This document shows, in pieces, positions 5,280 to 64,000 of a DNA stretch of 64,000 nucleotides. The translations under genes were made by a program, and so were the position numbers. How positions within the stretch are numbered: position 1 is the stretch's first letter; each line of letters starts with the position of its first letter. The notes beneath the pieces are model-generated. The model saw only the letters and a program-made list of their open reading frames with translations. It was not told the DNA's origin and ran no database searches. The DNA lies in the NCBI GenBank assembly GCA_964016885.1, contig OZ024740.1:93868001-93932000 (forward strand). The letters run 5' to 3'. This stretch comes from Eledone cirrhosa. Lineage: Eukaryota.

Positions 5280-5405
5280 TTAGGGTAAATATTGGTGCAA
5301 TTCAAATCAAGCACTCACCGTACTTTTTCCACATAGGAGTGACGGAGTAAATATCGAATAAGTAAAAGCGAAGTAGTTTCAGATGTTCAAGTCCTTTAAT
5401 AATAA

Positions 5406-27828: not shown

Positions 27829-28006
27829 CCTACTTCTGGCACAGAGTCAGCAATTATCCTAGTACATTATTGGTACTTTATTTTATAAACCCCGTAAGGA
27901 AGAAGGCAAAGGGAACCTCGGCGGGATTTGAAATTAGACTATAAAGGATCGTAACTCTATGCTGTGAAATGGCGGTCGACCTTCTACCGATACTGCCAAT
28001 GCCCCG
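27829..28006 (-). mobile_element. SINE copy with an approximately 19-bp target-site duplication
   Basis: Same SINE core. Flanks are CAATATCCATATAATTGCT (27810-27828) and CAATACCCATATAATGGCT (28007-28025). Confidence 0.8.
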
Positions 28007-33427: not shown

Positions 33428-33639
33428 TACCAAATAAAATATTGGAGGTATTTCCAAGGGTATTATGTCATCTTACTTCCTGGGGGCTAAAAAAACTGAT
33501 GCCTTATGTTTCATTTGCAATACAAAATAGTATATCAACATTAATTTAAATATTCAAAAAATCAAAACATTACGGGAGCGAATATATAGCAAAGTAACCA
33601 CCACGTGCTTTTTCTGTGATTATCATTATTACTATCATT

Positions 33640-33865
33640 CTTGGCGTCTCCGTCATTGTTGTTGTTCCACTCGAAAGTTTGTTCAAATGAACATTGAGCC
33701 GCTACCTTCAGCCTAAGATATTCAGGATGTATCGCAGGGTTTCTACTGTTCGTAGACAGCATGCTTTGCAAGTGTTCTAAAGAGGCGGCTGGGTTAATGT
33801 TTTTTAACCATTATTGAAAACTCCTGGAGATAGTACCTAGTGCTCCTAGGAAAATCGGAACGACA
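33640..33865 (-). mobile_element. Short old Dong family-A 3' fragment between TTA-rich tracts
   Basis: Similar to 55951-56175 (cagcct.agatattcagga.gtatcg). Confidence 0.7.
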
Positions 33866-33901
33866 TTTTTATCATTATTATTGTTATTATTATAATAATT
33901 T

Positions 33902-36025
33902 CTTCAGTCTCAGTCACTGGAAAGTTTGCTAAAATGAATATCGATCCACTACCTGCAGCCTCAGACATTCAGGACGTATATGAGGGTCGTTGCTGTTCCC
34001 AGCAAGCATGACTTTTGAAGTGTTACAAAAAAAGGGGCTCTTTGAGATGGTACCTATAGCTGATATGACAATCGGGACGACCTTGATCTCATGGCAGTTA
34101 CAAATCCTTTTTAACCCCCTCTTTAATTCCTGGTATCGGTTGATTTTCTCCCTCTCCTTTTCTTGCACTCTCGTGTCAAATGGGCAGGCTACATCTACAA
34201 TCAGGCACGATCTTTTTTCCTTGTCCAAAACCACCAGGTCAGGACTATTTTCTTCTAATTTCTTATGCGTCTGTATCCTAAAATCCCATAACACCTTCAC
34301 TTGACCGTTTTCCGTCACCAACTCTGGCTTATACTCATACCACTTCTCAGAATGTGGTAAATTGTTTACTTTGCATAGATGCCAGTGAATCAATTTTCCT
34401 ATCATATCATGTCTCCAGACTTTATAATGGGTCTGAGCTAGGTGTTTCCACACGGATACAATGTGAGCCACAATCTTCTCTCTCTCCACAGATCCTACAC
34501 AATGAGCTAGCCTCCTCCTTGTCAATATGGTGTTTCACTCACTTCGTTCTGGGGGCTTGCTCTTGCACAGCCATTAGCATTCCTTCTGTCACCTTTTAAA
34601 GGTCTCTTCTTTTTAACCAGTTCCATGTCTGTGGATCTCTAAATTCAGTTTTCTTAAAGAAGGTGCTACGAGGGGATATTTCATGAAGGAAGGCTGCTCT
34701 TCCTCCTTGTAGTTACTTCTTTCTTGGACATCCCCAGGTCTATTGTCTTCTCCTTCAGTACAATTTTGAGCATTGGCTCCCTACTGTCAGACAAATATTT
34801 GTGCAGACTGCTATTATCCATCTGAACACAGTCCTCTATGCTGATGAGAGCTCTTCCACCTTCAGATCTCCTTAAGTAGAGTATATCAACAGCATTCCTA
34901 TTATGGAACATGTTGTAGATAGTCATTAGCTTCCTAGTCTTCCCATCCATTTCTTTTTGTTCAGCAACATTCTATTTCAGAATTCCCATAATAGACACAT
35001 ATCAGGAATTTACTGCACTTATGACATTCCTACTATTTAGATGTGAATTTAGTACGTTCTTTAATCTCCTTATGTATTCAGATCTTATCAACTCCTTCAT
35101 TTTTTATTTCTAGATGTTATCTGACTCCAGAACGCCTATATATGTGTATCCTTCTTCAGTGTCAATTTCCTTTATCATCTCACCTGTTGGTACCTGGATT
35201 CCGTAGCTTCTGTTCAATTTACCCCTCCTCATCACTGGACTCCACACGTATTAACACCAAATTCCATAATATATCATTGCTGAAAATACGGACAGTGTCA
35301 ACAAGTGCATCAAATTCCTTCTCTCTCTTCCCAAAGAGTTTAAATTCGCCCATGAAGCGGACCTGGCTGATGGTAAGCTCTGCTATTCCCAGCTTGTATC
35401 CTGCGCTCACCTTTCGCAATATAAGGGACAAGGGTATGAGGGTAAGGCCACACAACAAAGGAGACAAACTATATCCCTGGAAGATCTTCACGCCTCCCAA
35501 GGATTCTCCACCTGATATTATCTCTGTTTCCCAGGACTTCATACGTTTACTTAATAGCTGTCTGTTGTTGTCTGCCACATTGAAGATCTCAGTGATTTTG
35601 GTCATCCAAGAATGAGATACCATCTCGAATGCCTTTTTGTAATATATCCATCCCACGACAAGACCAGTATGCGACGTCTTGCAATTCCTCACTACCATCT
35701 TATCAATAAGTAACTGGTCTTTTGTACCACGGGACTTCTTTTGGCATTCGTTCTGTTCATCCGGTAACAAGTTGCTTATGTGGAGGTGAATAGCAGATTT
35801 CCTCAGACACAATGATTGTTAACAGTTTCCACATTACCGACAGTCATGTGATAGGCCTATAGTTGGTAACCTCATTACCCGTGATTCGGTCTTTCATTAC
35901 CAGAACTGTGATACTTTTTTGTCAACCGCTCTGGTACTTCACACGACATCAAGCAGTCATTGAACATGGCTGTCAGTTTTAGGTGGAGGAATGTTATATC
36001 GTTTATCCTATATCCGTGAACATAT
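33902..36025 (-). mobile_element. Decayed 5'-truncated Dong/R4 family-A copy
   Basis: ORF pieces 35219-35812, 34681-34950 and 33929-34525 are homologous to the 1130-aa ORF (GTKDQLLIDK, WRHD, PDLVVLD, VDVACPFD). Confidence 0.9.
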
Positions 36026-36029
36026 CCTC

Positions 36030-38312
36030 GCACAGTGGGGAACTAGAACGTTATCTATATGCACGCTGGCATTATATTGGGCTAGTAGACAGTGGAGAAG
36101 GCTTTAAAAAGCTTCAAAAACCTAATCAGTCGTTTCGGGTATTCTGTAGGGAATCAGATAAGGCTAGTGAAGGTTGTCCACAATTTAAAATATTCGATTA
36201 CACGGAAAACAAAATTGTGATCTGTCAAGTTGACTCAGATAGAATCCTTATACAAGGATATCGGAAGTTCAACGCGTCGTTCCCGGCGCGCAAAGCTTAC
36301 AGAGACCGGATTAGCGAATTAGTTAATCGTTCGTTGACGGGTACAATCGTCAACAACAGGTGGTTGTTTACGTCGGAAATTGCAATTAGATTAGAATAGA
36401 TGAGGTTCTGCAAAGGAATAGTGATAGAGGAAAACAGAGTAGAAGGAAAGCTAGTTAGAAAGTTGAGGAGGCATTTAGGACCGGCATCGCAACCGCCGTG
36501 CTTGCGGTGAGATTGAGACCTGACCAATTCTTCAACGCAAAGCATGAAGTCTTCGTTGTCAGAGCTAGAGCGCTTGCTCTGAGACGCGAAAGGGCGAAAG
36601 CCGTTCCATGTGCAGGATGATGGAGGCGCGACGACGCAACAAATCCGCAATTCGGTCCAAATTCGGGAAGATGTGTGCGACATTTCACCTGCTCTTTTGC
36701 TCAATAGTTCGGGACAAGCGGCGGGCCGGATTGGAGTATGGACTTTGGTTCATACCACGACGGACTGCCGCGGCTTTCGACGACCGAAGCGCAGTTAACC
36801 CAAAAGCCGATAACAGCATGTGAAATACTGGAAGCAAGGTCTGACTGCTCGAGGTTTGGATGGTCTGCCCTGCTAACTTCAAGTTTACATATCAGATATG
36901 TTCTGCGACCTCTTGGCAAAGGTCTACTACAACAGGCAGCATAAGGGAGCATTCCCACTGTTGTGGGCCAGAAGCAGTGGTGCTGCTGATAAAAGAACCA
37001 AAGAAGGGGGACGATATAGACAACCTCAATCCCATAAATCTGCTAAACACAGAGTTCAAGAATTTGGCAAAGGTGTTAGCAAAGACATTGGAGATTGTCT
37101 TCGGTGAACTGGTGCGAGAAGCGCAGACATACGCCATACTGGACAGATCCATTCGCGAAAATCTCCACGTTATGCGTTACACCATAGAGAGGGTGGTTAA
37201 GGAAAATGGAGCGGGGAGAGGGTGCTGATGAACTTGGATCAATCTAAAGCATTTGATGGGATCGATCATCGGTACCTGGCTGCGGTCCTCGAAGCGGCCG
37301 GCTTCTGGCCCATTTTCAAGGTATGGATCACTGCGAAGCATATCGATTGTGAGGGTGAAAGTTACTCTGTCGCAGCCGTTCAGAAGCATGCGCTCAGTCC
37401 ACCAGTGTTGTCCCCTCTCATTCCTCTTGTACGTATTGTCCCTCAAGCTGTTACTGCACACATTGGAAACGATGAGGGAGGTCGCACGCGAAGTAGGATG
37501 TGGGAGATCCGTGTCGGTATTCGGCGACAAGGTCACCGTGGCGGTGTCGATCACCAGACACGTTCAGATGCATAGCACCGCTCTCAATTAATACGAAGCG
37601 GTGACAGGAGCAAAGTTAAACCAGGAAAAGATGATGGGCTAGCAACGCGGCACCTGCAGAGGGAAGTTCATGCCCTGTAACAGCTTTGTGGGGCGCTGGA
37701 TTGAAGGTCTGGTTAAATTGCTCGGGAGCTGGTACGGTATGGACCTCGAGATGTAGAAAAACTGGAGCGAAGTGACGAGCAGGGTCACCTATCACCCTTA
37801 AATGGGCCGCGATGAAGCTGTCTATGAAAGGTCGGACGGAGGTGGCGAATGCGTACATCGTGTGCGTTATTTACTACCGCCTGACTGTCGTACCTTGCCC
37901 TGACCCAAATCTGAGCAAAGTGGTGCGTCTACTATTCCGCTTTTTGTGGAAGGTTTGGGCTCCCATGGTCAGACGATCCATCTGCTGTCAATACTCGTTT
38001 CATGGAGGAGTGGGCATGCCATGGCTGATGACGCTCAAACATGCGCTGAAACTGCGACATCTCTAGTCCTTCCTTGACGGTGAACAGGTCTTTTCCCCAG
38101 CTCGTCTCATTAACGGACTGCAGTCATGGATCATGAAAAGACCGAGGATTAGCGCTTCGGAGCTGGAATGTCTCCAAGCGCACACCGCCTTCTACCAGCT
38201 GGACACTAGTATTCGTAGAACTCTACCTCGGCGCTTTATAGAGGACTATTGGAGGGGAAGGGCGACGATTTTCTCGGAGATACCGTGTGCGTCGAAGACG
38301 ATCAACTGTTCG
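36030..38312 (+). mobile_element. Decayed Tx1/L1-clade ORF2 fragment (APE end, RT), lacking its 3' end
   Basis: NPINLLNTEFKNLAKVLA, NLDQSKAFD and KLSMKGRTEVAN. Colinear with 47170-49590. Confidence 0.85.
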
Positions 38313-38314
38313 TC

Positions 38315-40110
38315 AACTGTGGTGAGAGTGAACGGTCAACATTCGGAACCGTTCAACATCATGCGCTCGGTCCGCAAGAATGTCCCCTCTCGTCCCTCTT
38401 GTACGTATTGACTCTCGAGCCATTACTGCACAAACTGGAGAGGTTGAGGGGGTCCCGCGCGAACTAGGACGCGGAAGATCCGTGTCAGCATATGCGGACG
38501 ATGTCACCGTAGTGGTGTCGCACGCCAAACAGATAGAGGCGATCGGCACTACACTAAGATAATACGAAGCGGTGACAGGAGCAATGATAGACCAAGAAAA
38601 GTCAGTGGGCCTGCAGCTCGGCACCTGGAGAGGCAGGTCCATGCCGTTCAAGAGCGTCGTCAGGCGCTGGACGGCCGGATCAGTTAAATTGCTCGGAGTC
38701 TGGTTCGGTCCGGATCTCCAGACGGACAAAAACTAGGACGAAGTCACGAGCAGGGTGGCTTCTCTCACCCAGAAATCGGCCGAGAGGAAGCTATCCCTGA
38801 AAGGTCGAGCGGAGGTGACCAACGCGTATACCGCATCCGTCATCTACTACCGCCTGACCGTCGTACCTTGTCCTAAGCCCCGCCTGACTGCGTTGGAGCG
38901 TTTGCTCTTTCGCTTTTTGAGGAAGGGACGCGCTCCGATGATCAGCCGATCCATCTGCTGTCAACACCCGCTACGTGGAGGGCTGGGAATGACGTGGCTG
39001 ATGATGCGCAGACACGCGCTCAGGCTACGACATCCCACCTCTTCCTCGACGGTGGTCAGGTGTGGTCTCCGTTTGTTAGACACGTCTTTCCCCAGCTCGC
39101 CTCCTTGACAGAGCTGCAGTCCTGGGTCAAGCGAAGACCGATCGGGAGCGCTTGGAAAATGGAATGTCTTCAGGCGCTCACAGCCCTCGACCAATCGGGC
39201 AATGTGATCGGTTAAACTCTACCTTGGCTTTCTATAGAGGATTAGTGGACGGGGAAGGGCGACGAAGTACTTGGGGAAAATCTAGGCGTCAACGAAAATC
39301 AACTAGCCAATCTCTTCGGAAGGACTTTCGGGCCGGGGCCTATGGACAACTTCCAGAAATCCCTGGCCTGGCAGTGCTACAGAGGAGCTTTGCCAGTTCG
39401 GGATAAACTCTACAGGCATGGAGGTGCCGTAAGCCGGGCATGTCCGAGATGCTCGCAGGGCGACGAAACCGTCTTGCACACATTCGTCCAGTGTCCGAGC
39501 ATTGCTGACTTGTGGGTTTATGTCGAACACCTGCTGTCGCGTGTGGGACGGATCCAGCTATCAGCTGAGTCCATCGTGAGGATTGCCCCGCCCTCTCCCT
39601 TTAGCCGGGAAGGGCAGGCAGTTTTTATATGTCTGGTGGCCATGGCGAAAAAGATAGTATGGTGGACACGTTTGAAAGGGCTGAAGACGAGCACTTACCT
39701 CTTCGGTGATGCCCTGATTAACTTTTTCAAATTTCATTTGAAAAGGAAAATCAGGGTAGAAAGGGAAGTGCTCTCTTTCCAGCATTTTGTTGAAAGATGG
39801 GTGAGAGAGGCAAGGATGGCCCGAGTGAATGGCCCTACGCTGAGTATGTGTCTGTAAATTAAAGGTGGAAAACTGGGAGAGGGAACTTGCCCTGGTGGCC
39901 AGGGTCACTGTGGATTTTTAATGGGCTTTCTCCATCAATGTCCCTCGGAAGTCTCCCCCCTATTGGGGAGTTTTTTCATTGTTCTATTATTACATCCTCT
40001 GTTTCTTGTTTTTTTTACACGCAGAAATGCCCATTTGTACCGTCCTGTATTGTCATGTACTGTCCTTAATGTCTACTTTATTTAAACCCTTGTGGTTGAT
40101 AAAGAAATCA
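38315..40110 (+). mobile_element. 5'-truncated Tx1-like copy (younger subfamily a) ending at (TTA)n
   Basis: CPLSSLLYVL, SAYADDVT, and C-terminal zinc finger CPRC..ETVLH..C. 3' end GATAAAGAAATC is followed by (ATT)n to 40130. Confidence 0.9.
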
Positions 40111-40130
40111 TTATTATTATTATTATTATT

Positions 40131-42598
40131 ACAGTTGCATTTATCTTGCTTTATGTTCATACGAGTTATCACCAAGTCACAACGAGTGACCTCAAGAGAC
40201 AACAAGTTCCGCCATGTTCAAGAAAGAACACACATATTCACACATGTATCTTTATTGTTTAGACTTGTGATGAACTTATATTGACAGAATCTTCCTTAGT
40301 ATATGGGCAGTTCCCATTAGTACTATCTATTGTATATCTCCTATACGCGGGTTTCCTGGGATTTGCGATATGTAATCATTAGACCCCTTAGGTATCATTC
40401 CTAGAGCGCCTACAACCACTGGTATTGTTTTAGTTCTCAATTTCCACATTTTTCCAATTTCTATCTCCAGGTCCTTATACTTGCTCAATTTTTCAAATGT
40501 TTTTATAGATACAGTCTTGTCTATTGGAACAGACATATCAATTAGCAGGCATACCCTCATTTGAAAGTCTTTCAATATTATATCAGGTCTGTTTGCATCT
40601 ATTTTTCGGTATGTTTGGATGCTAAAGTTCCACAAGATTGAGATGTAATCTTTTTCAAGTATGGGAGGTGGTTGATGCTCCCACCAATTCTTTTGATGGG
40701 GCAGGTCAAAATGCTTACACATTATCCAATGTATGTATTGTGCAGCTCTGTCATGCCTGTTTAGGTATTCGGTTGGAGCTATAGGACTGCACATTGAAAT
40801 TATATGGTCAATGGTCTCTGGTTGTTTTTTGCATACACGGCATAATGGGCTGCACCCATTTTTTATTATGTTGGCTTGGTAATTATTTGTTGGCAGACAC
40901 TGATCTTGTGCCGATATAATCAGTCCTTCAGTCTCCGATTTCAGTCCAGAGGATGCCAACCACTGATGTGTTAAAGTTTTGTCAACATCAGGAATGTTAG
41001 CTCGCTCTGGGTATTTTCCATACAGAGGCATTTCTTGCCATTTTTTAGCCAGTTTCTGTAGCAGTTCATTCTTTGCAGCTACTTTTACCTGCTTTGCTTT
41101 TTCTGTGTTTTCCATTTCAGCAGTAAATGGGACTTCTGAAATGTGTAGTCCATTACTGTAACTTTGTGCATCTTTTGTAATGGAATATGATCTTTTGATG
41201 ATTTCGTGTTTCAAAACGAGTTTGATCATCCAATCATGTGATTCCCTTAGATATGTAGATAATCCAATTGTTGCAGTTTTCAACGCAATGTCTAACTGGA
41301 TTAACTCACGTCCTCGTTCTTTCCTAGGGAGATATGTTCTATCTATATCTGTCTTAGGGTGATGCATTCTGTGCATGGTTAAGAATTTTCGAATTTTTGT
41401 ATCGAGCTTACGGTTCTCTGTGCTTGACCAGTTGATGACATTGTAACTGTAGGTTACTACTGGTATGGCAAGCGTGTTTATGGCATCGATCCTATTCCTT
41501 GCATTCAATTCCGTTCTTAAGATTGCTCTTACTCTGCGGTAAGATTCCTTCCTTATCCTTTCCCTCATTGTCGAGGGCTTGATTCCGTCTCCTTCACAAA
41601 CACCTAGATATTTGTAAGTTTTTTCTTGTCAAGTTCTCTTAGCACGTTTCCCCGATCAAGATTAATGTCTGAACTCTTCAGCAGCTTTCCTCTGGTGCAT
41701 TTATCTAGTCCAAACTCCATTTTAATGTCATCACTGAACTGCTTCACAGTGGATAATAGCACTTGCAATTGTTCATCATTTTTTGCAAATAGTTTCAGGT
41801 CATCCATGTAGAACAGGTGATTAATGGTTTTGTTATAGACTTTATATCCATGTTTTGTTTCATTGAGCATTTTACTTAATGGTATAAGTGCGATGCAGAA
41901 TAAAAGCTGTGATAAAGGGTCACCCTGAAAAATTCCACAATTAATATTAACTTCTCCAGCTTCCAGTGATTTTGTTTCACTATTCAAAAGGAGTGTCGTT
42001 TTCCATGTCTTCATACTGAATGACAAAAACTTCCTGACAACGGGGGATACTTTGAAAATCTCTAAACATTTTTCAATCCAACTGTGTGGCAAACTATCGA
42101 ATGCTTTTTTATAATCTATCCAAGCAATCGATAGATTTATGTGCTGGTTTTTCTTAGAGCCAAGCGCATCTGTTCAACTGTTATATTTTCCAATGTTTGT
42201 TCCTCAAGGTGAGCTGTATATTTCATTTGTCTGTCTATCCATGGGGCATGTATGTTATGAACTTTTTCTTCGGCCCACATCTTTTCCCAGAATTCTTGCA
42301 CTTCCTCCTTGGGTGGTATTGATTTAGCAGTTATTGTTGACTTACCAATTTTTCTGTACAAGTTTCTTTGGTTGTTTTTGAACATATTATTGTCCTTATA
42401 GAATCTAGATCGTTTTTCAAAGCGCCTTATACGAGCAGCTTTGGCCGACACTTTTTGCTTGATTATTTCTATCAGCATGTCTATGTCACATGTTGATTTT
42501 ATACTGTACTTTTTTTTCAATTTTCTAAGTTTAGTTTGTTTAACATGTTCACCTACTTTATAGTTTGTTAAAATTTCTATGTCAGATCGGAGAAGGTT
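40131..42598 (-). mobile_element. Dong/R4 family-B copy, disrupted
   Basis: ORFs 42137-42520, 41604-42092 (GIFQGD, LFYMDDLKLF) and 40327-41568 (CRVC..ETIDHIISMC, RHD, NRPDII, IDMSVP, KLSKY). Confidence 0.92.
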
Positions 42599-42651
42599 TT
42601 TATTATTATTATTATTAGAAGGTTATTATTATTATTATTATTGTTATTGTT

Positions 42652-44486
42652 ATTCCTTGAATCTCAGTCATTGATGTTGGTTAACTGGAAAGTCCGTTGG
42701 ATTGAATATCAAGCCATTACCTGCAGCCTCAGATATTCAGGACGTATCGGAGGGTTCTTGCTGTTCCAAGCAAGCATGCCTTTTGAAGCGTTCCAAAAAG
42801 CGTGAAGGGGCCGATTTTCTTTAACCATCCCTGGAAACTTTTGGAGATAGTCCCCAGTGCGCCTATGACAATCGGGATCACTTTGACTTCATGGCAGTTC
42901 CAAATCCTTTTCACCTCCCACTTTAGGTCCTGGTATCGGTTAATTTTCTCCCTCTCCTTCTCTTGCACTCTCGTGTCGAACGGGCAGGCCACATCCACAA
43001 TCAGGCACGATCTTTTTTCTTTGTCCACAACCACCAGGTCAGGTCTATTGTGTTCCAGTTTTTTGTCCGTCTGTATCCTAAAATCCCACAGCACCTTCAC
43101 CTGATTGTTCTCCATCACCGCCTCTGGCCTATGCTCATACCATTTCTCAGAATGTGGTAAATTGTTTACTTTGCACAGGTGCCAGTGGATCACCCTGCCC
43201 ATCACATCGTGTCTCCAGCCCTTATAGTGGGTCTGGGCTAGGTGTTTACACTCGGACACAATGTGAGCCACAGTCTCCTCTCTCTCTCCACAGATCCTGC
43301 ACAGTGGCCTAGCCTCCTCCTTGTAGATATGGTGCTTCAACCACTTCGCTTTGAGGGCCTGCTCCTGCGCAGCCATTAGCATTCCTTCTGTAGCCTTTTT
43401 GAGGTCTCCTCTTCTCAACCAGTTCCATGTCTGTGGATCTCTAAATTCAGTTTTCTCAAAGAAGGTACTATGAAGGGATTTTCCCTTAAGGCTGCTCTTC
43501 CTCCTTGATGTTATTTCCTCCTTGGACATCCCCTGGCCTACTGTCCCCTCCTTCAGTACAGCTCTGAGCATTGGCTCCTTACTATAGGTCACGTATTTGT
43601 ATAGGTTGTTTTTCTCCATCTGAACACAGTCCTCTATGCTGATAAGACCTCTTCCACCCTCAGATCTCCTTAGGTAGAGTCTATCGACATCACTCCTCTT
43701 GTGGAACATGTTGTAGATAGTCAATAGCTTCCTAGTCTTCCTATCCATTTCTTTTTGTTCAGCAACATTCCATCTCAGAATTCCCGCACTGTACCTAATA
43801 ATAGACACAGCTCGGGAATTTACTGCGCTATTGGCATTTCTGCTGTTCAGATGTGACTTCAATACGCTCCTTACTCTCCGAATGTATTCAGTTCTTAACA
43901 ATTCCTTCATTTTTTTGTTCTTTATGCCATCAGCCTCCAGAACGCCCAAATACTTGTATTCTTCCTCAGAGTCAATTTCCTTTATCATCTCACCTGTTGG
44001 TATCTGGATCCCGTTACTTCTGCTCAACCTGCCCCTCTTCATCACAATGACTCCACATTTACCAATACCAAACTGCATACATATATCACTGCTGAAAATA
44101 CGGACAGTGTCAACAAGCACATCCAACACCTTCTCACTTTTCCCGAAGAGCTTAAGATCGTCCATGAAGAGGAGGTGATTGATGGTAAGCTCTCCCCTTC
44201 CCAACTTGTATCCTGCTCTCACTTTTCGCAGCATAATGGTCAAGGGCATCAGGGCAAGGACAAACAACAGAGGGGACAGGCTATCTCCCTGGAAGATACC
44301 TCTCTTGATCTTCACGCTTCCCAAGGATACTCCAGTTGATGTCAACTCTGTCTCCCAGGACCCCATACTCCTGCCTAGCAACTGTCTGATGTTATCTGCC
44401 ACCCTGAAGATCTCCAGGCTTTTGGTGATCCAGGAATGAGGCACCATGTCAAATGCCTTTCTGTAGTCTATCCATCCCATGGCAAG

Positions 44487-44487
<1 letters not shown>
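42652..44487 (-). mobile_element. Young 5'-truncated Dong family-A copy flanked on both sides by (TTA)n
   Basis: Nearly identical to 55951-57786. TTA tracts at 42600-42651 and 44488-44525. Confidence 0.95.
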
Positions 44488-44526
<39 letters not shown>

Positions 44527-44549
44527 GTAGTAGTAGTAGTAGTAGTACT

Positions 44550-50392: not shown

Positions 50393-50394
50393 AC

Positions 50395-50877: not shown

Positions 50878-50894
50878 TTATTATTATTATTATT

Positions 50895-53478: not shown

Positions 53479-54972
53479 TATCACCAAGACACAACCAGTG
53501 ACCTCAAGAGACAACAATGTCCGCCATGTTGAAGAAAGAACATACACACTCACACATGAAATCTTTAGGTGTTTTGACTTGTGATGTACTTATATTGTCA
53601 GAATCTTCCTTACTATATGGGCAGTTCCCATTAGTACTATCTTTTGTATTTCTCCTATACGCAGGTTTCCTGGGATTTGCGATAAGTAATCATTAGAACC
53701 CCTAGGTATCATTCCTAGAGCGCCTACAACCACTGGTATTGTTATAGTTCTCAATGTCCACACTTTTCCAATTTCTATCTCCAGGTCCTTATACTTGCTC
53801 AATTTTTCAAATCTTTTTAGAGATACATTCTTGTCTATTGGAACGGACATATCAATTAGCAGGCATACCCTCTTTTTAAAGTCCTTCAGTATAATATCAG
53901 GTCTATTTGCATATATTTTTCGGTCGGTTTGGATGATAAAGTTCCAAAAGATTGAGATGTGATATTTTTCAAGTATGTGAGGTGGTTGATGCTCCCACCA
54001 ATTCTTTTGATGGAGCCGGTCAAAATGCTTACACTTTGTCCAATGTATGTATTATGCAGCTCTGTCATGCCTGTTTAGGTATTCGCTTGGAACTATGGGA
54101 CTGCACATTGAAATTATATGGTCAATGGTCTCTGGTTGTTTTTTACATACACTGCATAATGGGCTGCATCCATTTTTTATTATGTTGGCTAGGTAATTTG
54201 TTGTTGGCAGACACTGATCTTGTGCTGATATAATCAGTCCTTCAGTCTCCGATTTCAGTCCAGAGGATGCCAACCACTGATGGGTTAAAGTTTTGTCAAC
54301 ATCAGGATTGTTAGCTCGTTCTGGGTATTTTCCATACAGAGGCTTTTCTTGCCATTTCTCAGCCAGTTTCTGTAGCAGTTCTTTCTTTGCAGTTACTTTT
54401 ACCTGCTTTGTTTTTTCTGTGTTTTCCATTTCAGCAGTAAATTTTCATCCATTCGCTCATAATTTCATCCTTCAAGTTGGCAATTTCATTCACATACATT
54501 TCTTTATCATTTACGATCTCATTGCTTTCATTTTGAGTTTCATCTTGAGCATGCACTCCCTCCACATTTTCGATCATTTCTTTAATTTGTTTTGTTGTCA
54601 GTGATTCCGCCCCAACCCTGGGATTCGAAGTGTTACAATTTACCTCGTTTTCACTGACACATGTTTCATTTTCCCTTCGCTGACTTTGTGCAAATAGCTT
54701 GATCTGATCAATTTCTATATCAGTTAGTAACTTTTTTTTTACAATATTTCTTCGTATGTTGGCTAGTTTGTTACTGTCAATATAGCCTCTGTTTTCGGAA
54801 TGTTTCTTTTTCCAGTTGATATATGTCTGTTCTGTATTCGATGTATTTGATGGGTAGTATATGGCAGTGTAGAAAGCCTCAATGACTTCTTTATTATCTT
54901 CCCTTGACCATTTTTCTCTTTTTTTTTTTGATTTCTTGGTGGTGAGCATGGAGGGCCAACAGTAGGAATATT
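53479..54972 (-). mobile_element. Dong family-B copy with internal deletion of the RT
   Basis: The N-terminal block (KWSREDNKEVIEAFY..KLANIRRNI, 54431-54949) abuts the post-RT block (MENTEK..) at about 54440. Confidence 0.88.
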
Positions 54973-54974
54973 CC

Positions 54975-55900
54975 GATCGGGCAATGTGATCGGTGGAAAC
55001 TCCACCTCGGCGTTCTATAGAGGATTAGTGGAGGGGAAGAGCGATGACGTACTTGGGGAAACTCTAGGCGTCGACGAAAATCAACTAGCCAATCTCTTCG
55101 GAAGAACTTTCGGGCCAGGGCCTATGGACAACTTCCAGAAATCTCTGGCCTGGCAGTGCTACCGAGGAGCCTTGCCAGTTCGGGATAAACTCTACAGGCA
55201 TGGAGGTGCCGTCAGCCGGGCATGTCCGAGATGCGCGCAAGGCGACGAAACCGTCCTGCACGCACTCGTCCAGTGTCCGAAAATTGCTGACTTGTGGGTT
55301 AATGTCGAACACCTGCTGTCGCGTTTAGGACGGATCGGGCTATCATCTGAGTCCATCGTGATGATTGCCCCGCCCTCCTCCTTTAGCCGGGAAGGGCAGG
55401 CAGTTTTTATCTGGCTGGTGGCCATGGTGAAAGAGATAGTATGGTGGACACGTTTGAAAGGGCTGAAGACGAGCACTTACCTGTTCGGTGATGCTCTGAT
55501 TGACTTTTTCAAATTTCATTTGAAAAGGAAAATCAGAGTAGAGAGGGAAGTGCTCTATTCCCAGCATTTTGTTGAAAGATGGGTGTGAGAAGCAAGAATG
55601 GCCCGAGTGAATGGGCCTACTCTGAGTATATATCTGTAAATTAAAGGTGGAAAACTGGGAGAGGGCACTTGCCTTGGTGGTCAGGGTCATTGTGGCTTTT
55701 TACTGGGCTTTCACCACAAATGTCCCTCCGAAGTCTCCTCCCTATTGGGGAATTTTTCATTGTTATTTTCATTGTTATTTTTGTTACATCCTCTGTTTTT
55801 GTTTTTTACACGCAGAAATGCCCATTTGTACCGTCCTGCATTGTCCTGCACTGTCCTTAATGTCTACTTTATGTAAACCCTTGTGGTTAATAAAGAAATC
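54975..55900 (+). mobile_element. 5'-truncated Tx1 subfamily-a copy ending at (TTA)n
   Basis: ORF 54986-55588 (zinc-finger C-terminus). Ends AATAAAGAAATC then (ATT)n at 55901-55950. Confidence 0.92.
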
Positions 55901-55950
55901 ATTATTATTATTATTTTTATTATTATTATTATTATTATTGTTATTGTTAT

Positions 55951-58900
55951 TCCTTGAATCTCAGTCATTGATGTTGGTTAACTGGAGAGTCCGTTGGATT
56001 GAATATCAAGCCACTACCTGCAGCCTCAGATATTCAGGACGTATCGGAGGGTTCTTGCCGTTCCAAGCAAGCATGCCTTTTGAAGCGTTCCAAAAAGCGT
56101 GAAGGGGCCGATTTTCTTTAACCATCCCTGGAAACCTTTGGAGATAGTCCCCAGTGCGCCTATGACAATCGGGATCACTTTGACTTCATGGCAGTTCCAA
56201 ATCCTTTTCACCTCCCACTTTAGGTCCTGGTATCGGTTAATTTTCTCCCTCTCCTTCTCTTGCACTCTCGTGTCGAACGGGCAGGCCACATCCACAATCA
56301 GGCACGATCTTTTTTCTTTGTCCACAACCACCAGGTCAGGTCTATTGTGTTCCAGTTTTTTGTCCGTCTGTATCCTAAAATCCCACAGCACCTTCACCTG
56401 ACTGTTCTCCATCACCGCCTCTGGCCTATGCTCATACCATTTCTCAGAATGTGGTAGATTGTTTACTTTGCACAGGTGCCAGTGGATCACCCTGCCCATC
56501 ACATCGTGTCTCCAGCCCTTATAGTGGGTCTGGGCTAGGTGTTTACACTCGGACACAATGTGAGCCACAGTCTCCTCTCTCTCTCCACAGATCCTGCACA
56601 GTGGGCTAGCCTCCTCCTTGTAGATATGGTGCTTCAACCACTTCGTTTTGAGGGCCTGCTCCTGCGCAGCCATTAGCATTCCTTCTGTAGCCTTTTTGAG
56701 GTCTCCTCTTCTCAACCAGTTCCATGTCTGTGGATCTCTAAATTCAGTTTTCTCAAAGAAGGTACTATGAAGGGATTTTCCCTTAAGGCTGCTCTTCCTC
56801 CTTGATGTTATTTCCTCCTTGGGTATCCCCTGGCCTACTCTCCCCTCCTTCAGTACAGCTCTGAGCATTGGCTCCTTACTATAGGTCACGTATTTGTATA
56901 GGTTGTTTTTCTCCATCTGAACACAGTCCTCTATGCTGATAAGACCTCTTCCACCCTCAGATCTCCTTAGGTAGAGTCTATCGACATCACTCCTCTTGTG
57001 GAACATGTTGTAGATAGTCAATAGCTTCCTAGTCTTCCTATCCATTTCTTTTTGTTCAGCAACATTCCATCTCAGAATTCCCGCACTGTACCTAATAATA
57101 GACACAGCTCGGGAATTTACTGCGCTTATGGCATTTCTGCTGTTCAGATGTGACTTCAATACGCTCCTTACTCTCCGAATGTATTCAGTTCTTAACAATT
57201 CCTTCATTTTTTTGTTCTTTATGCCATCAGCCTCCAGAACGCCCAAATACTTGTATCCTTCCTCAGAGTCAATTTCCTTTATCATCTCACCTGTTGGTAT
57301 CTGGATCCCGTTACTTCTGCTCAACCTACCCCTCCTCATCACAATGACTCCACATTTACCAATACCAAACTGCATACATATATCACTGCTGAAAATACGG
57401 ACAGTGTCAACAAGCACATCCAACTCCTTCTCACTTTTCCCGAAGAGCTTAAGATCGTCCATGAAGAGGAGGTGATTGATGGTAAGCTCTCCCCTTCCCA
57501 ACTTGTATCCTGCTCTCACTTTTCGCAGCATAATGGTCAAGGGCATCAGGGCAAGGACAAACAACAGAGGGGACAGGCTATCTCCCTGGAAGATACCTCT
57601 CTTGATCTTCACGCTTCCCAAGGATACTCCAGTTGATGTCAACTCTGTCTCCCAGGACCCCATACTCCTGCCCAGCAACTCTCTGATGTTATCTGCCACC
57701 CTGAAGATCTCCAGGCTTTTGGTGATCCAGGAATGAGGCACCATGTCAAATGCCTTTCTGTAGTCTATCCATCCCATGGCAAGATCAGTGTGTCTCCTCC
57801 TGCAATTCCCCATTACCATCTTATCAATAAGCAACTGGTCCTTTGTACCACGTGACTTCTTTCGGCATCCTTTCTGTTCGTCCGGCAACAAGTTGTTTGT
57901 GTGGAGGTGATGGTAGATTTCCTCAGACACAATGCTCGTCAACAGTTTCCACATTACGGGCAGACATGTGATAGGTCTATAGTTGGTAACATCATTACCC
58001 TTGATTCGGTCTTTCATTATCAGAACTGTGGTACCTTTTGTCAACCACTCTGGCACCTCACCCGACACCAAGCAGTCATTGAACATGGCCGTCAGCTTCG
58101 GGTGGAGGGATGTTAAATGTTTAATCCAATACCCCTGCACACCATCTGGGCCTGGTGATTTCCAGTTGGTTAGTTTTTTGGCTTGCCCCTTAAGAGTTTC
58201 AACTGTGATACTCAAATCAGTCTGTTGCTGTGCCTGCTCACCGATCTCCCTCTGTACTGTCTCAATCCACCCTGCCTGGGCATTGTGTCTAACATCCTGC
58301 TCCCATATTCCTCTCCAGAATGTTTTAGCTTGTTCCGCCCCAGGGATCAAGTCGGTGCCTCTTTCTTTCCCCTCAAGCTGTCCAAACAGCATCTTCTGGT
58401 TGTTGTCGAACATGCGGTTCTGTTTATACTGACTGACTCTGTTCTCGTATCGCCTGATTTTGGCACTCTTTGCTACAATGCGTTGCTTCAATTCCTCTAT
58501 GATAATATTTAGCTTTTTACTCCTAGTTTTGTATTTTATTTCCAGTCTATTTTTAGTGCCTATGTTTTTTAGTGTCCCATTCAGTAGTGACTCAAGCTTT
58601 CCTATGTCATTTCTCATTTCCCCGATTTGCCCACTCAGTCGCTTCTTCCACCACGGCTCTGCTCTTTCTTGTCTGTTGTTTCCTCTCGCTTTTATACCAA
58701 GTAGTTTCCTCACCGTATTTGCTGTTGCTTTGAGGATATTGTTGCACTGGTGAAGACTCCTCGCCTCAAGGTATGGGATGACTTTGTTTACCTTAGCTGT
58801 TGTTTCTTTTAACTTTTTCCTGTCTACAAATCTTAGGTTCATAGGTCTCCCACTATCATTGTTCAACTCATCTACCACTAAATTTAGGATGTCAACCGAA

Positions 58901-60458
58901 TCTTGTCCTAGCCCGTCAGCATTCATCTCCTCAGTGGCCGTATCTCTGTTCCAGGTATTATTTATCTCAGTATTCAGATCATTGTCTGCTTCGGGTGGTT
59001 CCTCCGCTCTCAGGACCTCCTCACCTTCATTTCCCGCCGGCTCGCTTGTCTGGCATACTACACCCGCCATCTCCAAGCCATTCTCTCTGCTCAGTTCCTC
59101 CAGTTCCAGCTCGCTTATCCACCCATTAGTTCTTATTACCCGAGCCTGCCCGGCCAATTTTTGTTCATCTAATTTAAATAAACCAATCTCGTTCCAGATG
59201 TTATGCATCCGTCTCCTGTAGCCCCTCTCCTTGGGGTTACTTTTCAGGTAGCATTGCATAACAGTTCTATTCAATTCTTTCGTCCAGTTGGTTCTGGCCC
59301 CTTTCCTTCTTCTTCTTCCTCCAACATCAGCAGTATTTCGTTGACAGTCAGGTTCCTGCTGCTGAGCCAGGGGGCACCTGTTGGGTGAGAGTCTGTCACA
59401 TGACGTTCTAGTCTCCATTTCACCGTTATTCGAACTGTTTATGTTCGATATTTAAACACTCTTATCGAGGATTGGCGAATGTATGTTTACATAGCCATCT
59501 GTGGATCCGCCATCCCACTTGGCCCTTGTGTGGCATCATCACCACGCTGTATACGGACACACATAAACAAACAAACACACGGGCAGAAAGGGCCCCAAAA
59601 ATGAATAAGCATAAGTTTCATTGTAATGTAGTATTCGAATGTCTGACTTAGTTTTTGTTTTTTAAGTTTTACTTTTTCCCCCCTCTTCTCTGTCCGTCCG
59701 CCTGCCTCTCTCTTCATTCTTATTTTCTTTACGTTTTGGGGGTTTCTTTTTTTGTTTTTGTTTTTCTCTGTTTTTCTCGTTTTTTACTGTTGTTGCTGTG
59801 CTGCTTTTGTTGTTTATTTTTTCTTTTTTCTTTTGAGTCTATCTATATATTTTGATGCCTTCCTCTTTTTTAGCAGTAGGGATTCTATAATGTGGTGGCA
59901 GCAGCCAGCTAAAAGAAGAAGTGGGAGACTGGCGGCGGTAGCGATACTGAGACAGTGGTGGTGGTGATGTCGATACCGAGGCAGTGGTGGCGGTGATGTG
60001 ACCGTATTACTGTAGCGATGGTGCTGTAGCGGTGGCAGCAGTGAAGGAGTGAAGGGGTGGTGGCGGCGGTGATGGGATAATGGTTGTAATGATGGCCGTA
60101 GTGATCGGTGGTGGTTTAGTGTACACAGGTGATAGGGTGGGTGGTGTATCTAGTTTCTGGTGTTGGTGAGTTTGGCTGTTCTATATAGTGTATACAGAGG
60201 AGGAGGGGGGGGGGGTTCTTCTTCCATTTATAGCCATTTTCTTTTTTGGATATACAGTGTACAATACAAAGTTGAATATTTGAATATTTGAGCCTTATAA
60301 CAATATATTTTGGGTCCGAATTTTTTGGGGCTCAAGCCGGGTGCTTTACGTAGCATTTGTACTAAGAGTTGTTATTTCACAAATGGTTTAAATATGTTAA
60401 AAATTCAAAACTTACGGGAGCGATTTCATGACCTCCGTCACCTCGTGCGTCTTCTTCC
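55951..60458 (-). mobile_element. Apparently full-length Dong/R4 family-A retrotransposon (5' boundary uncertain)
   Basis: Intact ORF, about 75-bp 3' UTR ending in (TAA)n, and about 1 kb of upstream sequence bounded by the next (TTA)n tract at 60460-60520. Confidence 0.8.
56026..59418 (-). CDS. Intact 1130-aa R4/Dong-clade polyprotein: N-terminal domain, reverse transcriptase, CCHC knuckle, restriction-like endonuclease
   Basis: KSPGPDGV, YRPITCL, QKGCR, WIDYRKAFDMVPH, GIFQGDSLSPLLF, LLFMDDLKLF, YKYLG; CRICGEREETVAHIVSEC; RHD..RPDLVVVD..VDVACP..KINRY. No stops or frameshifts. Confidence 0.96.
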   Translation of the reverse strand: METRTSCDRLSPNRCPLAQQQEPDCQRNTADVGGRRRRKGARTNWTKELNRTVMQCYLKSNPKERGYRRRMHNIWNEIGLFKLDEQKLAGQARVIRTNGWISELELEELSRENGLEMAGVVCQTSEPAGNEGEEVLRAEEPPEADNDLNTEINNTWNRDTATEEMNADGLGQDSVDILNLVVDELNNDSGRPMNLRFVDRKKLKETTAKVNKVIPYLEARSLHQCNNILKATANTVRKLLGIKARGNNRQERAEPWWKKRLSGQIGEMRNDIGKLESLLNGTLKNIGTKNRLEIKYKTRSKKLNIIIEELKQRIVAKSAKIRRYENRVSQYKQNRMFDNNQKMLFGQLEGKERGTDLIPGAEQAKTFWRGIWEQDVRHNAQAGWIETVQREIGEQAQQQTDLSITVETLKGQAKKLTNWKSPGPDGVQGYWIKHLTSLHPKLTAMFNDCLVSGEVPEWLTKGTTVLIMKDRIKGNDVTNYRPITCLPVMWKLLTSIVSEEIYHHLHTNNLLPDEQKGCRKKSRGTKDQLLIDKMVMGNCRRRHTDLAMGWIDYRKAFDMVPHSWITKSLEIFRVADNIRELLGRSMGSWETELTSTGVSLGSVKIKRGIFQGDSLSPLLFVLALMPLTIMLRKVRAGYKLGRGELTINHLLFMDDLKLFGKSEKELDVLVDTVRIFSSDICMQFGIGKCGVIVMRRGRLSRSNGIQIPTGEMIKEIDSEEGYKYLGVLEADGIKNKKMKELLRTEYIRRVRSVLKSHLNSRNAISAVNSRAVSIIRYSAGILRWNVAEQKEMDRKTRKLLTIYNMFHKRSDVDRLYLRRSEGGRGLISIEDCVQMEKNNLYKYVTYSKEPMLRAVLKEGRVGQGIPKEEITSRRKSSLKGKSLHSTFFEKTEFRDPQTWNWLRRGDLKKATEGMLMAAQEQALKTKWLKHHIYKEEASPLCRICGEREETVAHIVSECKHLAQTHYKGWRHDVMGRVIHWHLCKVNNLPHSEKWYEHRPEAVMENSQVKVLWDFRIQTDKKLEHNRPDLVVVDKEKRSCLIVDVACPFDTRVQEKEREKINRYQDLKWEVKRIWNCHEVKVIPIVIGALGTISKGFQGWLKKIGPFTLFGTLQKACLLGTARTLRYVLNI

Positions 60459-60459
60459 C

Positions 60460-60522
<63 letters not shown>

Positions 60523-60524
60523 TT

Positions 60525-63500
60525 TTCTTTGAGTCTCTGTCATTGATGTTGGTTAACTGGAAAGTTTGTTGAAATGAATATCAAGTCACTACCTGCAGCC
60601 TCAGTTATTCAGGATGTATCGGAGGGTTCTTGCTGTTCCCAGCAAGCATGCCTTTTGAAGTGTTCCAAAAAGCAGGGCGGGGCCAATTTTCTTTAACCAT
60701 CCCTGGAAACTCTTTCAGATAGTACCTAGTGCGCTTATGACAATCGGGACTACTTTGACGTCATGGTAGTTCCAAATCCTTTTTACCTCCAACTGTAAGA
60801 CCTGGTATCGGTTAATTTTCTCCCTCTCCTTCTCTTGCACTCGCGTGTCGAATGGGCAGGCCACATCCACAATCAGGCACGATCTTTTTTCCTTGTCCAA
60901 AACCACCTGGTCAGGTTTATAGTGTTCCAGTTTCTTGTCCGTCTGTATACTAAAATCCCTCTGCACCTTCACCTGATCGTTTTCTCTCACCGACTCTGGC
61001 TCATACTCATACCACTTCTCAGAATGTGGTAAATTGTTTACTTTACATAGGTGGCAGTGGATAACGTTGCCCCTCGCATCATATCTCCATCCCTTATAGT
61101 AAGTCTGGGCTAGGTATTTACACTCGGATACTATGTGAGCCACAGTCCCCTCTCTCTCTCCACAGATCCTGCAAAGTGGGCTAGCCTACTCCTTGTAAAT
61201 ATGGTGTTTCACCCACTTCGTTTTGAGGGCCTGCTCTTGCGCAGCCATTAGCATTCCTTCTGTAGCCTTTTTAAGTTCACTTCTTTTCAACCAGCTACAT
61301 GTCTGTGGATCTCTGAAATCAGTATTCTCAAAGAGGGTACTATGAACTCATTTTTCATGTAGGTTGCTCATTCTCCTTATTGTTATTTCCTCCTTGGCCA
61401 TCCCCTGGTATATTGTCATTTCCTTCAGTACAATTCTGAGCATTGGCTCCCTACTATCAGTCACGTATTTGTGGAGTTTGTTTTTCTCCATCTGAACACA
61501 GTCCTCTATGCTGATAAGTCCTCTTCCACCTTCAGATCTCCTTAAGTAGAGTCTATCGACATCACTCTTCTTGTGGAACATGTTGTAGATAGTCAATAGC
61601 TTCCTAGTTTTCCTATCCATTTCTTTTTGTTCAGCAACATTCCATCTCAGAATTCCCGCACTGTACCTAATAATAGACACAGCTAGGGAATTTACTGCAC
61701 TTATGGCATTCCTACTGTTCAGATGTGAGTTTAATACGCTCCTTACTCTCCGAATATATTCAGATCTTATCAATTCCTTCATTTTATTTCTTCTTCATGT
61801 CATCAGCCTCCAGAAAACACAAATACTTGTATCCTTCTTCAGTGTCAATTTCCTTTATCATCTCACCTGTTGTTACCTGGATTCCGTTACTTCTGCTCAA
61901 TTTACCCCCTCTTCATCACAAGGACTCCACATTTACTAATACCAAATTGCATACATATATCATTGCCGAAAATACGGACAGTGTTAACAAGAACATCCAA
62001 CTCCTTCTCACTCTTCCATTAGAGCTTAAGATCGTCCATGAAGAGGATGTGATTGATGGTAAGCTCTCCCTTTCCCAACTTATATCCTGCTCTCACTAAT
62101 CGAAGTATAATGGTCAGAGGCATCAGGGCAAGGACAAACAACAGAGGGGACAGACTATCTCCCTGGGAGATACCTCTCTTGATTTTCACGCCCCCTAAGG
62201 ATTCTCCAGCTGATGTTAACTCTGTTTTCCAGGACTTCATACTTTTGCTCAACAACTGTCTGATATTATCTGCCACCTTGAAGATCTCTGGACTTTTGGT
62301 GATCCAAGAATGAGGCACCATGTCAAATGCCTTTTTGTAGTCTAACCATCCCATGGAAAGACCAGTGTGTCTCCTCTTGCAATTCCTCATTACCATCTTA
62401 TCGGTAAGTAACTGGTCTTGTGTACCACTGGACTTCTTTCGGCATCCTTTCTCTTCGTCCGGTAACAAGTTGTTTGTGTGGAGGTGATGGTAGATTTCCT
62501 CAGACACAATGCTCGTCAACAGTTTCCACATTACGGACAGACATGTGATAGGTCTATAGTTGGTAACATCATTACCCTTGCTTCGGGTTTTCATTACCAG
62601 AACTGTGGTACCTTTTGTCAACTACTCTGGTACCTGACCTGACATCAAGCAGTCATTGAACATGGTTGTCAGTTTCGGGTGGAGGGATGTTATATTTTTA
62701 ATCCAATACCCCTGCATACCATGGGCCTGGTGATTTCCAGTTGGTTATTTTGTTGGCCTGCCCCTTAAGATTTTCAACTGTGATTCTCAAATAAGTTTTG
62801 TGTGTGCCTGTTCACTAATATCCTTTTGTACTGTCTCAATTCACACTGCCTGGTCATTATGTTTAACACCCTGCTCCCATATTCCTCTCCAGAATGTCTT
62901 AGTTTGTTCCGCCTCAGGGATCAAGTCGTTGCTTCTTTCTTTCCCTTCAAGCTGTCCAAACAACATCCTCTGGTTGTTGTCAAACATGCAGTTCTGTCTG
63001 TACTGACTGACTCTGCTCTCGTATTGCCGGATTTTTGCACTCTTTTCTACAATGCGTTGCTTCAGTTACTCTATGATAATATTTAGACTTTTCCTCCTAG
63101 TTTTGTACTTTATTTCCAGTCTATTTTTAGTGTATATGTTTTTTAGTGTCCAATTAAGTAGGGACTCAAGCTTTCCAATGTCATTTCTCATTTCCCTGAT
63201 TTGACCATTCAGTCGTTTCTTCCACCAATATTCTGATCTTTCTTGTTTGCTGTTTCCTCTCGCTTTCATGCCAAGTAATATCCTCACCGCATTTGCTGTT
63301 GCTTTGAGGATACTGTTGCACTGGTGAAGGCTTATCGCCTCAAAGTATGGGCTGACTTTGTTTACCTTAGCTGTTGTTTCTTTTAACTTTTTCATGTCTA
63401 CAAATCTTAGGTTCATAGGTTTCCCACTATCATTGTTCATTTCATCTACCACTAAGTTTAAGATATCAACCAAATATTGTCCGAGCTCGTCAGCATTCAT

Positions 63501-64000
63501 CTCCTCAATGGCCGTATGTCTGTTCCAGGTATTTTTTATTTCAGCATTCAGATCATTCTCTATTTCGGATGGTTCCTCCGTTCTCTCAACCTCTTCACCT
63601 TCATTTCCCACTGGCTCGTTTGCCTGTCATACTCCACTCTCCATTTCCAACCTAATCTCTCTGCTCAGTTCCTCCAGTTCCAGCTCGCTTATCCACCCAT
63701 TAGTTCATATTACCCGATCCTGCCCGGCCAAATTTTGGTTAAATAGACCAATCTCGTTCCATATGTTATGCATCCGTTTTCTATAGCCTTTTTCCTTGGG
63801 GTTACTCTTCAGGTAACATTGCATAACAGTTCTATTCAATTCTTTCGTCTAGTTGGTTCTGGTCCCTTTCTTTCTTCTTCTTCTGACACCAGCAGTATTT
63901 AGTTGACAGCCAGGTCCCTGCTGCTGAGCCAGGGAGCACCAGCTTTGTGAGAGTCTATCACATGACATTCCAGTCTCCACTTCACCGTTATTCGAACTGT
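60525..64000 (-). mobile_element. Diverged, disrupted near full-length Dong family-A copy running off the window end
   Basis: ORF pieces 63066-63611, 62019-62621, 61348-61782 and 60715-61143 are colinear with the intact ORF. The window end matches 59400-59438. Confidence 0.93.

Follow-up and report, generated by a model that had tools for sequence, protein, structure and literature searches.

A polarised array of Dong/R4-type and Tx1-type LINEs, with a SINE, along one (TTA)n repeat in Eledone cirrhosa

Why should two kinds of retrotransposon with unrelated nucleases lie side by side along a single microsatellite, each on its own strand? The question is raised by a stretch of 64,000 nucleotides from Eledone cirrhosa (G000:C1:93868001-93932000, hereafter the window), which lies interstitially, at 93.9 of 442.9 Mb of a chromosome in a 3.0-Gb assembly. 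From position 33600 onward the window is occupied by long interspersed elements (LINEs) of two types, Dong/R4-type elements with a restriction-like nuclease and Tx1-type elements (L1 group) with an apurinic endonuclease (APE), and (TTA)n tracts of one polarity lie among them. We read the locus as a polarised array of independently inserted Dong and Tx1 LINEs accompanied by a short interspersed element (SINE), an array that likely grows by nicking of opposite strands and by the fresh tails of its own members. We put the probability of this reading at roughly 0.8.

An array of one polarity

The copies in the array were resolved by self-comparison and by mapping against single genomic copies. LINE library matches span 29968 of the 30401 bases between 33600 and 64000 (99%). 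An earlier note, made from the window's letters, had counted seven Dong copies of two families (here called DongA and DongB), every one on the minus strand, and six Tx1-type copies, every one on the plus strand, and the mapping confirmed both counts. If the copies are independent, this strand pattern has a chance of 2.4e-4. An eighth Dong piece, a 5'-end remnant at 33430-33615, stands behind a degenerate tract. The tracts are equally uniform. All perfect (TTA)n runs of at least three units right of 33600 have the plus strand as their T-rich strand, and 8-mers in ATT phase number 167 T-rich versus 4 A-rich from 33600 to 64000, and 40 versus 18 from 1 to 33600. The tracts reported near 33870, 40110, 42600, 44488, 50878, 55901 and 60460 were all found, the one near 33870 being merely (TTA)3 at 33884 inside a degenerate run. 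The claim that such tracts mark the junctions held in part: counted by eye, there is a tract at 8 of 13 inter-element junctions (a degenerate one at two of these) and none at the other five (36025, 38312, 50392, 53473 and 54974). At 53473 a Tx1 3' untranslated region (UTR) is fused to a DongB 3' UTR, and both tails are lost. What the note called a nest is indeed a polarised LINE array, with copies placed mostly end to end and few of them nested.

With 70 kb of adjacent sequence added, the array spans 33.6-75.7 kb and then 82.7-109.2 kb (window coordinates) with its polarity unchanged. Overall, 33.6-109.2 kb holds 11 Dong copies on minus, and 11 Tx1 copies and 2 SINEs on plus. The 7-kb element-free gap between the two blocks (75.7-82.7 kb) may be an insertion into one array, or the two blocks may share a polarity by chance. 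The polarity is not perfect, as a (TAA)5 run lies at 104062 and a minus Tx1 fragment (65% identity) at 111560, 2 kb outside the array.

Neighbours, targets and the SINE across the genome

To ask how general this layout is, neighbours were counted over 1.36 Mb of non-redundant sequence in 177 regions; duplicates of larger regions, 57 of 116 small loci, had been removed beforehand, and 60 evenly spaced regions of 10 kb each were the control regions. The polarity rule is that neighbours share a strand within a class and between SINE and Tx1, and lie on opposite strands when a Dong meets a Tx1 or SINE. Among neighbours that share a tract, 178 of 186 follow the rule (16/17 in the control regions alone), and so do 35 of 67 distant neighbours, at least 500 bp apart. 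Dong-Tx1 pairs that share a tract are opposite in 50/52 cases, which bears out the claim that two kinds of LINE use one microsatellite in opposite directions. The SINE shares the polarity of Tx1 in 35 of 36 such pairs.

Among Tx1-type elements of type T2, 5 of 29 young 3' ends adjoin an inverted Dong (about 0.08% expected from end densities), and 7 of 29 DongA tails adjoin an inverted Tx1 (expected <0.1%). One subfamily pair alone gives 145 exact tail-to-tail junctions with a gap of at most 30 bases, while the reversed-pattern control gives 0. Thus the enrichment of inverted Dong copies beside Tx1, which the note had proposed as a check, is present. A test that used only coordinates covered the first 94 Mb of chromosome 1, with 53 DongA and 100 T2 5' ends: seven of the 53 have a T2 5' end no more than 12 kb away, always on the opposite strand, where the null gives 2.2 (p 0.007). 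Same-family neighbours within 20 kb in this sample share a strand in 12/14 and 8/8 cases.

Because an (ATT)n at the 3' end of Tx1 proves nothing alone, the 5' side has to decide on targeting. In genome-wide searches with exact patterns, 1546 of 1687 T2 5' ends and 31 of 35 T1 5' ends stand right behind 11 bases of ATT repeat, so the flanks of Tx1 copies are not random. For DongA, at least 473 of 1141 5' ends come after 11 bases of TAA repeat, always in the same phase. Since Tx1 RNA might itself begin with ATT units, the sequence farther upstream of 29 full-length T1 copies was examined; it was a SINE tail in 13, a Tx1 tail in 4, an inverted truncated Dong in 2 and unrecognised in 10. Truncated copies cannot bring their own 5' repeat, and therefore their junctions inform on targeting. 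We dropped matches that start in the variable 5' kilobase or have a collinear piece upstream; the filtered set retains a few deletion junctions and omits three tract-less junctions of the window. Among 24 truncated Tx1 junctions, with 23 distinct breakpoints, 13 adjoin a tract of the element's own polarity, and among 57 truncated Dong junctions, with 50 distinct breakpoints, 40 do; no junction adjoins the opposite polarity only. Own-polarity tracts occur in 0.7% and 0.9% of random 38-bp windows. An earlier, unfiltered count (Tx1 9/26, Dong 33/51) had included internal deletions and divergent 5' regions. With 13/24 against a background of about 1%, the proposed use of (TTA)n by Tx1 stands as a strong preference, one that is not strict. 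The elements are common: in the 600 kb of evenly sampled sequence, Dong takes up 3.2%, Tx1 4.0% and one SINE reference 1.8%, and 25 of the 53 (TTA)n tracts there adjoin a recognised Dong, Tx1 or SINE.

The two-partner system of the earlier note was correct as to Dong and Tx1 and missed the SINE. This element is about 200 nt long, ends in (ATT)n and sits on the Tx1 strand. Its 3' end has about 22 nt in common with the 3' end of T1 (p 0.0045 and <0.0005) and none with Dong. A B-box-like word can be seen in its sequence, and at the four loci run through ARAGORN no mapped SINE copy was called as a tRNA. SINE target duplications are visible because the SINE often lands outside long tracts. Where one was found, the pre-existing copy begins with at least four bases in ATT phase in 28 of 31 cases (null 0.9%), and 10 of 11 duplications in the control regions are in ATT phase. 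These counts suggest a short ATTA(T) word, not a long microsatellite, as the minimal target, with the word at the start of a 10-20 bp duplication, the same geometry as that of L1 with poly(A). One ATTA site in the T2 open reading frame 1 (ORF1) is a SINE insertion hot spot, with three copies that have different 5' ends (L096, L107 and window coordinate 108956). Judged by the common 3' end and the common target, the SINE is likely mobilised by Tx1-type machinery.

Proposed mechanism and rival explanations

How could such arrays arise? The T-rich strand is the reading strand of Tx1 and SINE, whose tail is (ATT)n, and the A-rich strand that of Dong, whose tail is (TAA)n. From target-primed reverse transcription we infer that the Tx1 APE would nick the A-rich strand, whose freed ...ATAAT-3' would pair with the (AUU)n tail of the RNA, and that the Dong restriction-like nuclease would nick the T-rich strand and prime on (UAA)n. 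L1 primes similarly, with a T-tract and poly(A). Each insertion would split the tract and add a new tail, so that targets multiply. The first tract at a locus would set the direction of later arrivals, with members of one class head to tail and Dong inverted relative to Tx1 and SINE. The five tract-less junctions of the window would have lost their tracts by later deletion and recombination. At a 5' junction the tract often belongs to an earlier element, as its tail, for Dong and Tx1 alike, and the idea that the array grows by its own tails is supported to this extent: the reuse of earlier tails is seen, and growth is likely.

Several observations weigh against this account. Of the truncated junctions, 11 of 24 for Tx1 and 17 of 57 for Dong lack a perfect tract, and 28 of the 53 control-region tracts are without a recognised element alongside. 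Target duplications were found for just 31 of 140 tailed SINE copies and almost never for LINEs, the latter because such duplications fall inside the tract. Full-length Tx1 RNA that starts with ATT units may inflate the 92% figure for T2. At L208 a truncated T2 piece lies inside a SINE at a tract-less site with a 12-13 bp duplication. Eight of the 186 pairs violate the polarity rule (four at meeting points of the two tract polarities), and no empty-site allele was seen. Finally, all counts combine targeting with any survival bias toward harmless arrays.

Could Dong alone target the repeat? Tx1 and SINE would then be tailed with (ATT)n yet show little preference in where they insert, and their tails would receive inverted Dong copies. 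Known Dong specificity (PMC3812793) is enough to account fully for the tail-to-tail pairs, about half of the truncated Tx1 junctions are without a tract, and an element-borne 5' ATT run is possible. We nevertheless regard this explanation as improbable, given that 17 of 29 full-length T1 copies stand right behind a SINE or Tx1 tail of the same direction, where SINE 3' ends are expected at <1% of sites, that 13 of 24 truncated Tx1 junctions adjoin a T-rich tract, some in non-element DNA, and that SINE duplications begin in ATT phase in the pre-existing copy. A little less probable again is a weak insertion preference, for a word of 4-5 bases, ATTA(T), with arrays consisting mainly of insertions that escaped purifying selection or deletion. 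Long elements are more harmful than SINEs, and in the control regions SINEs stand beside a full tract at 21 of 67 5' ends, compared with about 90% for full-length Tx1, as this explanation would have it. Selection, however, does not predict strand polarity (178/186), and the youngest T2 copies have the same neighbours.

The note had also named segmental duplication of one original pair as an alternative, and blocks might also have multiplied as tandem duplicates, or through read-through transduction that started from one Tx1/Dong pair. Two window DongA copies are 99% alike, one type of tail-to-tail junction recurs 145 times, and tandem DongA copies with the same breakpoint at L202 show that local duplication happens. 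Yet all 12 window pieces that were compared are nearer to a copy elsewhere than to another copy in the window, which argues against local duplication, even if the two young DongA copies pass this comparison narrowly (99.2-99.8% elsewhere versus 99.0% in the window). Moreover, the breakpoints are nearly all distinct, tract lengths vary, and the partners across a tract are varied (DongA, DongB, four Tx1 5' types and two SINE types). Local duplication thus occurs but is not the rule, and multiplication as blocks is very unlikely as the origin of the array. An assembly artefact, with repeats collapsed or mis-joined, is barely credible as the source of the array. Short-read contigs break at the tracts, and no junction was bridged; on the other hand, the copies are 1-26% different from one another and have deletions of their own, and every large chromosome, like the evenly spaced control regions, shows these junction types. 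The reading as independent insertions remains the one we prefer. Separately, near-identical pieces at depth 3-8 turned up in two sequencing runs labelled as other organisms; these may be contamination, and we do not take them as evidence of a wider distribution or of transfer.

The elements, the features of the window and known systems

The labels Dong-type and Tx1-type follow from architecture and target rather than from a tree with reference elements, and are to be taken as provisional. DongA has a single frame with an RVT_1 match (E 9e-23) and no Exo_endo_phos match. In its C-terminus the CCHC, RHD and PD..D columns are conserved. DongB has 36% protein identity to DongA and an intact frame of 1216 amino acids (aa) at L151. 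The DongA nuclease region aligns weakly to that of R2, the best solved relatives by sequence, and the seven best fold matches of its predicted model (pLDDT 85) are all R2 proteins (TM 0.51-0.59). No named Dong or R4 family is among the 120 homologues listed for DongA. Dong 3' ends carry (TAA)n on the element strand in 28 of 29 cases, and the 5' end of DongA (60459) is fixed by 1141 exact matches genome-wide. Matches from DNA searches are a sample (40 of 53 candidates scored); exact patterns give more than 1100 copies.

DongA and DongB have in common a conserved 5' block of 150 nt (window 60310-60459 (-) and 33430-33615 (-); L151:900-1100), which may be a promoter or a degenerate ribozyme. Its word GCTCCC is also the word after the TAA run in the 5' primer for Dong of Bombyx mori, an element of the R4 lineage for which an HDV-like ribozyme (HDV, hepatitis delta virus) has been shown at the 5' end, according to the cited passages of PMC3774820. 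Here, an Rfam search on four loci gave just sub-cut-off AT-repeat matches, an HDV-like descriptor search was empty in three of four Dong copies, and folding of the element 5' and 3' ends gave no signal (z +0.8 to -1.7). A 300-bp tandem duplication in the DongA 5' UTR at L102, L132 and L205 is a subfamily mark, and the two tandem DongA copies at L202:2377-6669, with an identical 5' breakpoint, are compatible with local duplication or a template jump.

The Tx1-type frames in the window are all broken (longest per copy 127-257 aa) and have no ORF1 domain match. The T2 ORF2 at L121, by comparison, has a 996-aa frame with Exo_endo_phos (E 8e-14) and RVT_1 (E 3e-29) matches, and zf-RVT was found in a second copy. 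It is closer to L1 ORF2p (E 6e-54) than to R2 (E 5e-21). Its 109 listed homologues include no named Tx1; a fish protein with ZCCHC-type Pfam labels scores 280 bits versus 186 bits for human L1, which is a hint only. A zf-CCHC match in ORF1 (E 0.005, one copy) is below the curated cut-off. Tx1 3' ends carry (ATT)n in 28 of 29 cases by rule, with a query that lacked the tail. There are at least four 5'-end/ORF1 types. One of them, T3, is joined to an ORF2 that is 91-96% identical to that of T2 (82723-88590 and 98184-104062 in window coordinates; L143 and L226), which suggests 5'-end swapping. At L199:3024-4164 the 5' junction of a T1 copy meets inverted Tx1 sequence, which resembles L1 twin priming, and at L098:3166-5055 (-) a T2 copy is split by the 630-aa frame of another element, which we take to be RTE-like.

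The features of the window are collected in Table 1. Left of the array, 31780-33428 is a local duplication (88%), with a 37-bp tandem repeat at 32264-32462. The SINE on the minus strand in the left half has (TAA)3 on both sides, consistent with the polarity rule. On the same strand, tracts frequently pass over into (GTA)n, (TTC)n or (TTG)n (window 44526-44546; L034, L035, L039, L046, L173, L191 and L204). As (TTC)n is the target of Koshi, the graded tracts reflect either tail mutation or an older related specificity. The tracts are also stop-free in one frame, and poly-Asn or poly-Ile read-through joins frames over junctions (702 aa at window 42729-44837 (-); 1061 aa at L094:2747-5929 (-)), which may mislead gene callers into false fusion proteins.

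Table 1. Elements and tracts located in the window, by position
Feature	Position	Strand	Remarks
Scattered SINE copies, left half	4154-4527, 5404-5591 (-), 14617-14744, 27822-28000		
Diverged Dong-type 5'-end remnant	33430..33615	-	aligns with DongA and DongB 5' ends; degenerate tract precedes
Old DongA-like 3' fragment, 74% to intact copy	33647..33858	-	
Degenerate (TTA)n, tail of next Dong copy	33865..33900	.	
Old 5'-truncated DongA-like copy, 82%, broken frames	33916..36022	-	
Old Tx1-type fragment, 74-81% to T1, both ends tract-less	36034..38311	+	
Tx1-type T2 copy, 5'-truncated	38317..40109	+	zf-RVT match
(TTA)7 shared tail, Tx1/DongB tail to tail	40110..40131	.	
DongB copy, 5'-truncated, internal deletion	40135..42599	-	RVT_1 match
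Two (TTA)6 runs, 5 bases of DongB junction sequence between	42600..42645	.	runs at 42600 and 42623
Young 5'-truncated DongA, 99% to intact copy	42648..44488	-	
(TTA)13 (GTA)7 tract, Dong 5' junction head to head with Tx1 5' end	44488..44551	.	
Full-length decayed T1: ORF1 region, broken APE-RT (reverse transcriptase) ORF2, longest frame 257 aa, tail missing	44552..50390	+	
Short T2 3' fragment at T1 tail position	50395..50874	+	
(TTA)5 tract, Tx1 head to tail	50877..50894	.	
T2 copy: 5' region, ORF1; 2.9-kb internal deletion at 52766; 3' UTR fused to DongB	50895..53477	+	
DongB copy, 2.1-kb internal deletion at 54442	53469..54975	-	
Young 5'-truncated T2, 99% to copies on other chromosomes	54973..55900	+	
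(TTA)n shared tail, T2/DongA tail to tail	55901..55944	.	runs at 55902 and 55917
Full-length DongA, ~1-kb 5' UTR, intact 1141-aa frame 56026-59451	55945..60459	-	RT, CCHC, RHD, PD..D nuclease
(TTA)20 tract, Dong head to tail	60460..60519	.	
DongA-like copy, 88-89%, runs on to 65000 past the window	60522..64000	-	

What does this mean beyond one locus? The polarity is a layout rule for a large share of the genome, namely Dong, Tx1 and SINE copies with their adjoining (TTA)n tracts. It adds (ATT)n as a target of a Tx1-type nuclease and names the likely motor of an abundant SINE. Because unrelated nucleases use opposite strands of one repeat, the system is a natural experiment on nuclease specificity versus RNA-tail pairing, and the intact Dong frames and very young Tx1 copies make a test feasible. 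Targeting of own tails is also a safe-haven strategy without a host gene array, unlike the targeting of ribosomal DNA (rDNA) or telomeres. A broader reading is tentative, and we come down slightly short of favouring it: a three-member guild of an APE LINE, a SINE and a restriction-like-nuclease LINE would have converged on the two strands of the repeat, with tails as most of the landing sites. It would build one-way arrays of tens of kb, make up about 9% of the genome, be a main source of (TTA)n tracts and repeat hotspots, and underlie the octopus expansions of Dong-R4, L1-Tx1 and SINEs. Published octopus work lists Dong-R4 and L1-Tx1 among the abundant elements with recent activity, Dong-R4 by name for Octopus vulgaris, and in the cited passages the repeat hotspots are unexplained and targets unmentioned (PMC13282606; PMC8967140).

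Among known systems, the closest likeness is to TRAS and SART of Bombyx mori (R1 clade), which occupy a single short tandem repeat facing opposite ways, one family per strand; a small number of units is enough, and pairing between RNA and target aids priming (passages of PMC7265360). Here too, two families use one repeat in opposite orientations (50/52). TRAS and SART, however, are both APE elements of one clade on host-maintained telomeric (TTAGG)n, and SART ends in poly(A), whereas here there are two nuclease classes, interstitial sites on all large chromosomes, and a tail that is itself the target repeat. The array works like TRAS/SART and is not a member of that system. Dong itself (R4 clade; B. 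mori, Anopheles and Biomphalaria) is described as having a (TAA)n target on the element strand, and retrotransposon tails as giving birth to microsatellites (passages of PMC3812793). The Dong copies here share this target and the single frame with RT and restriction-like nuclease, and the Dong half is new just in its abundance (about 3% of 600 kb) and in its use of Tx1 and SINE tails as sites.

For Tx1, the APE families Kibi, Koshi and those of crocodilians have the targets (TC)n, (TTC)n, (TTCC)n and (TTTC)n, in the pyrimidine-rich reading (passages of PMC4494074). By contrast, the unit here is (TTA)n, shared with Dong, in an invertebrate host. A full-text literature search, with Repbase notes and the target table of PMC4494074 outside its scope, returned no ATT-targeting Tx1 and no Tx1/Dong pairing. 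In crocodilians, SINEU is tied to its partner Tx1-Mar by target preference and forms tandem insertions (PMC4494074, same passages). The target there is a Mariner transposon, whereas here the partners have about 22 nt of 3' end in common and the SINE's own tail serves as a target. L1 and Alu insert into poly(A) tails, so that the tail is the target, the 10-20 bp duplication starts with tail sequence, and clusters are head to tail. Compared with them, the repeat here is a trinucleotide, clustering is much stronger, and a second enzyme class works on the other strand. The repeated 28S rDNA locus is likewise home to one APE element, R1, and one restriction-like-nuclease element, R2, but there the sites are fixed, separate sites in a host gene, the orientation is the same, and no new target is produced. 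Since the parts are each known, the surprise to a specialist is moderate. What is new is the ATT unit for a Tx1-type element, the two nuclease classes on opposite strands, and a SINE that is at once user and source of the target.

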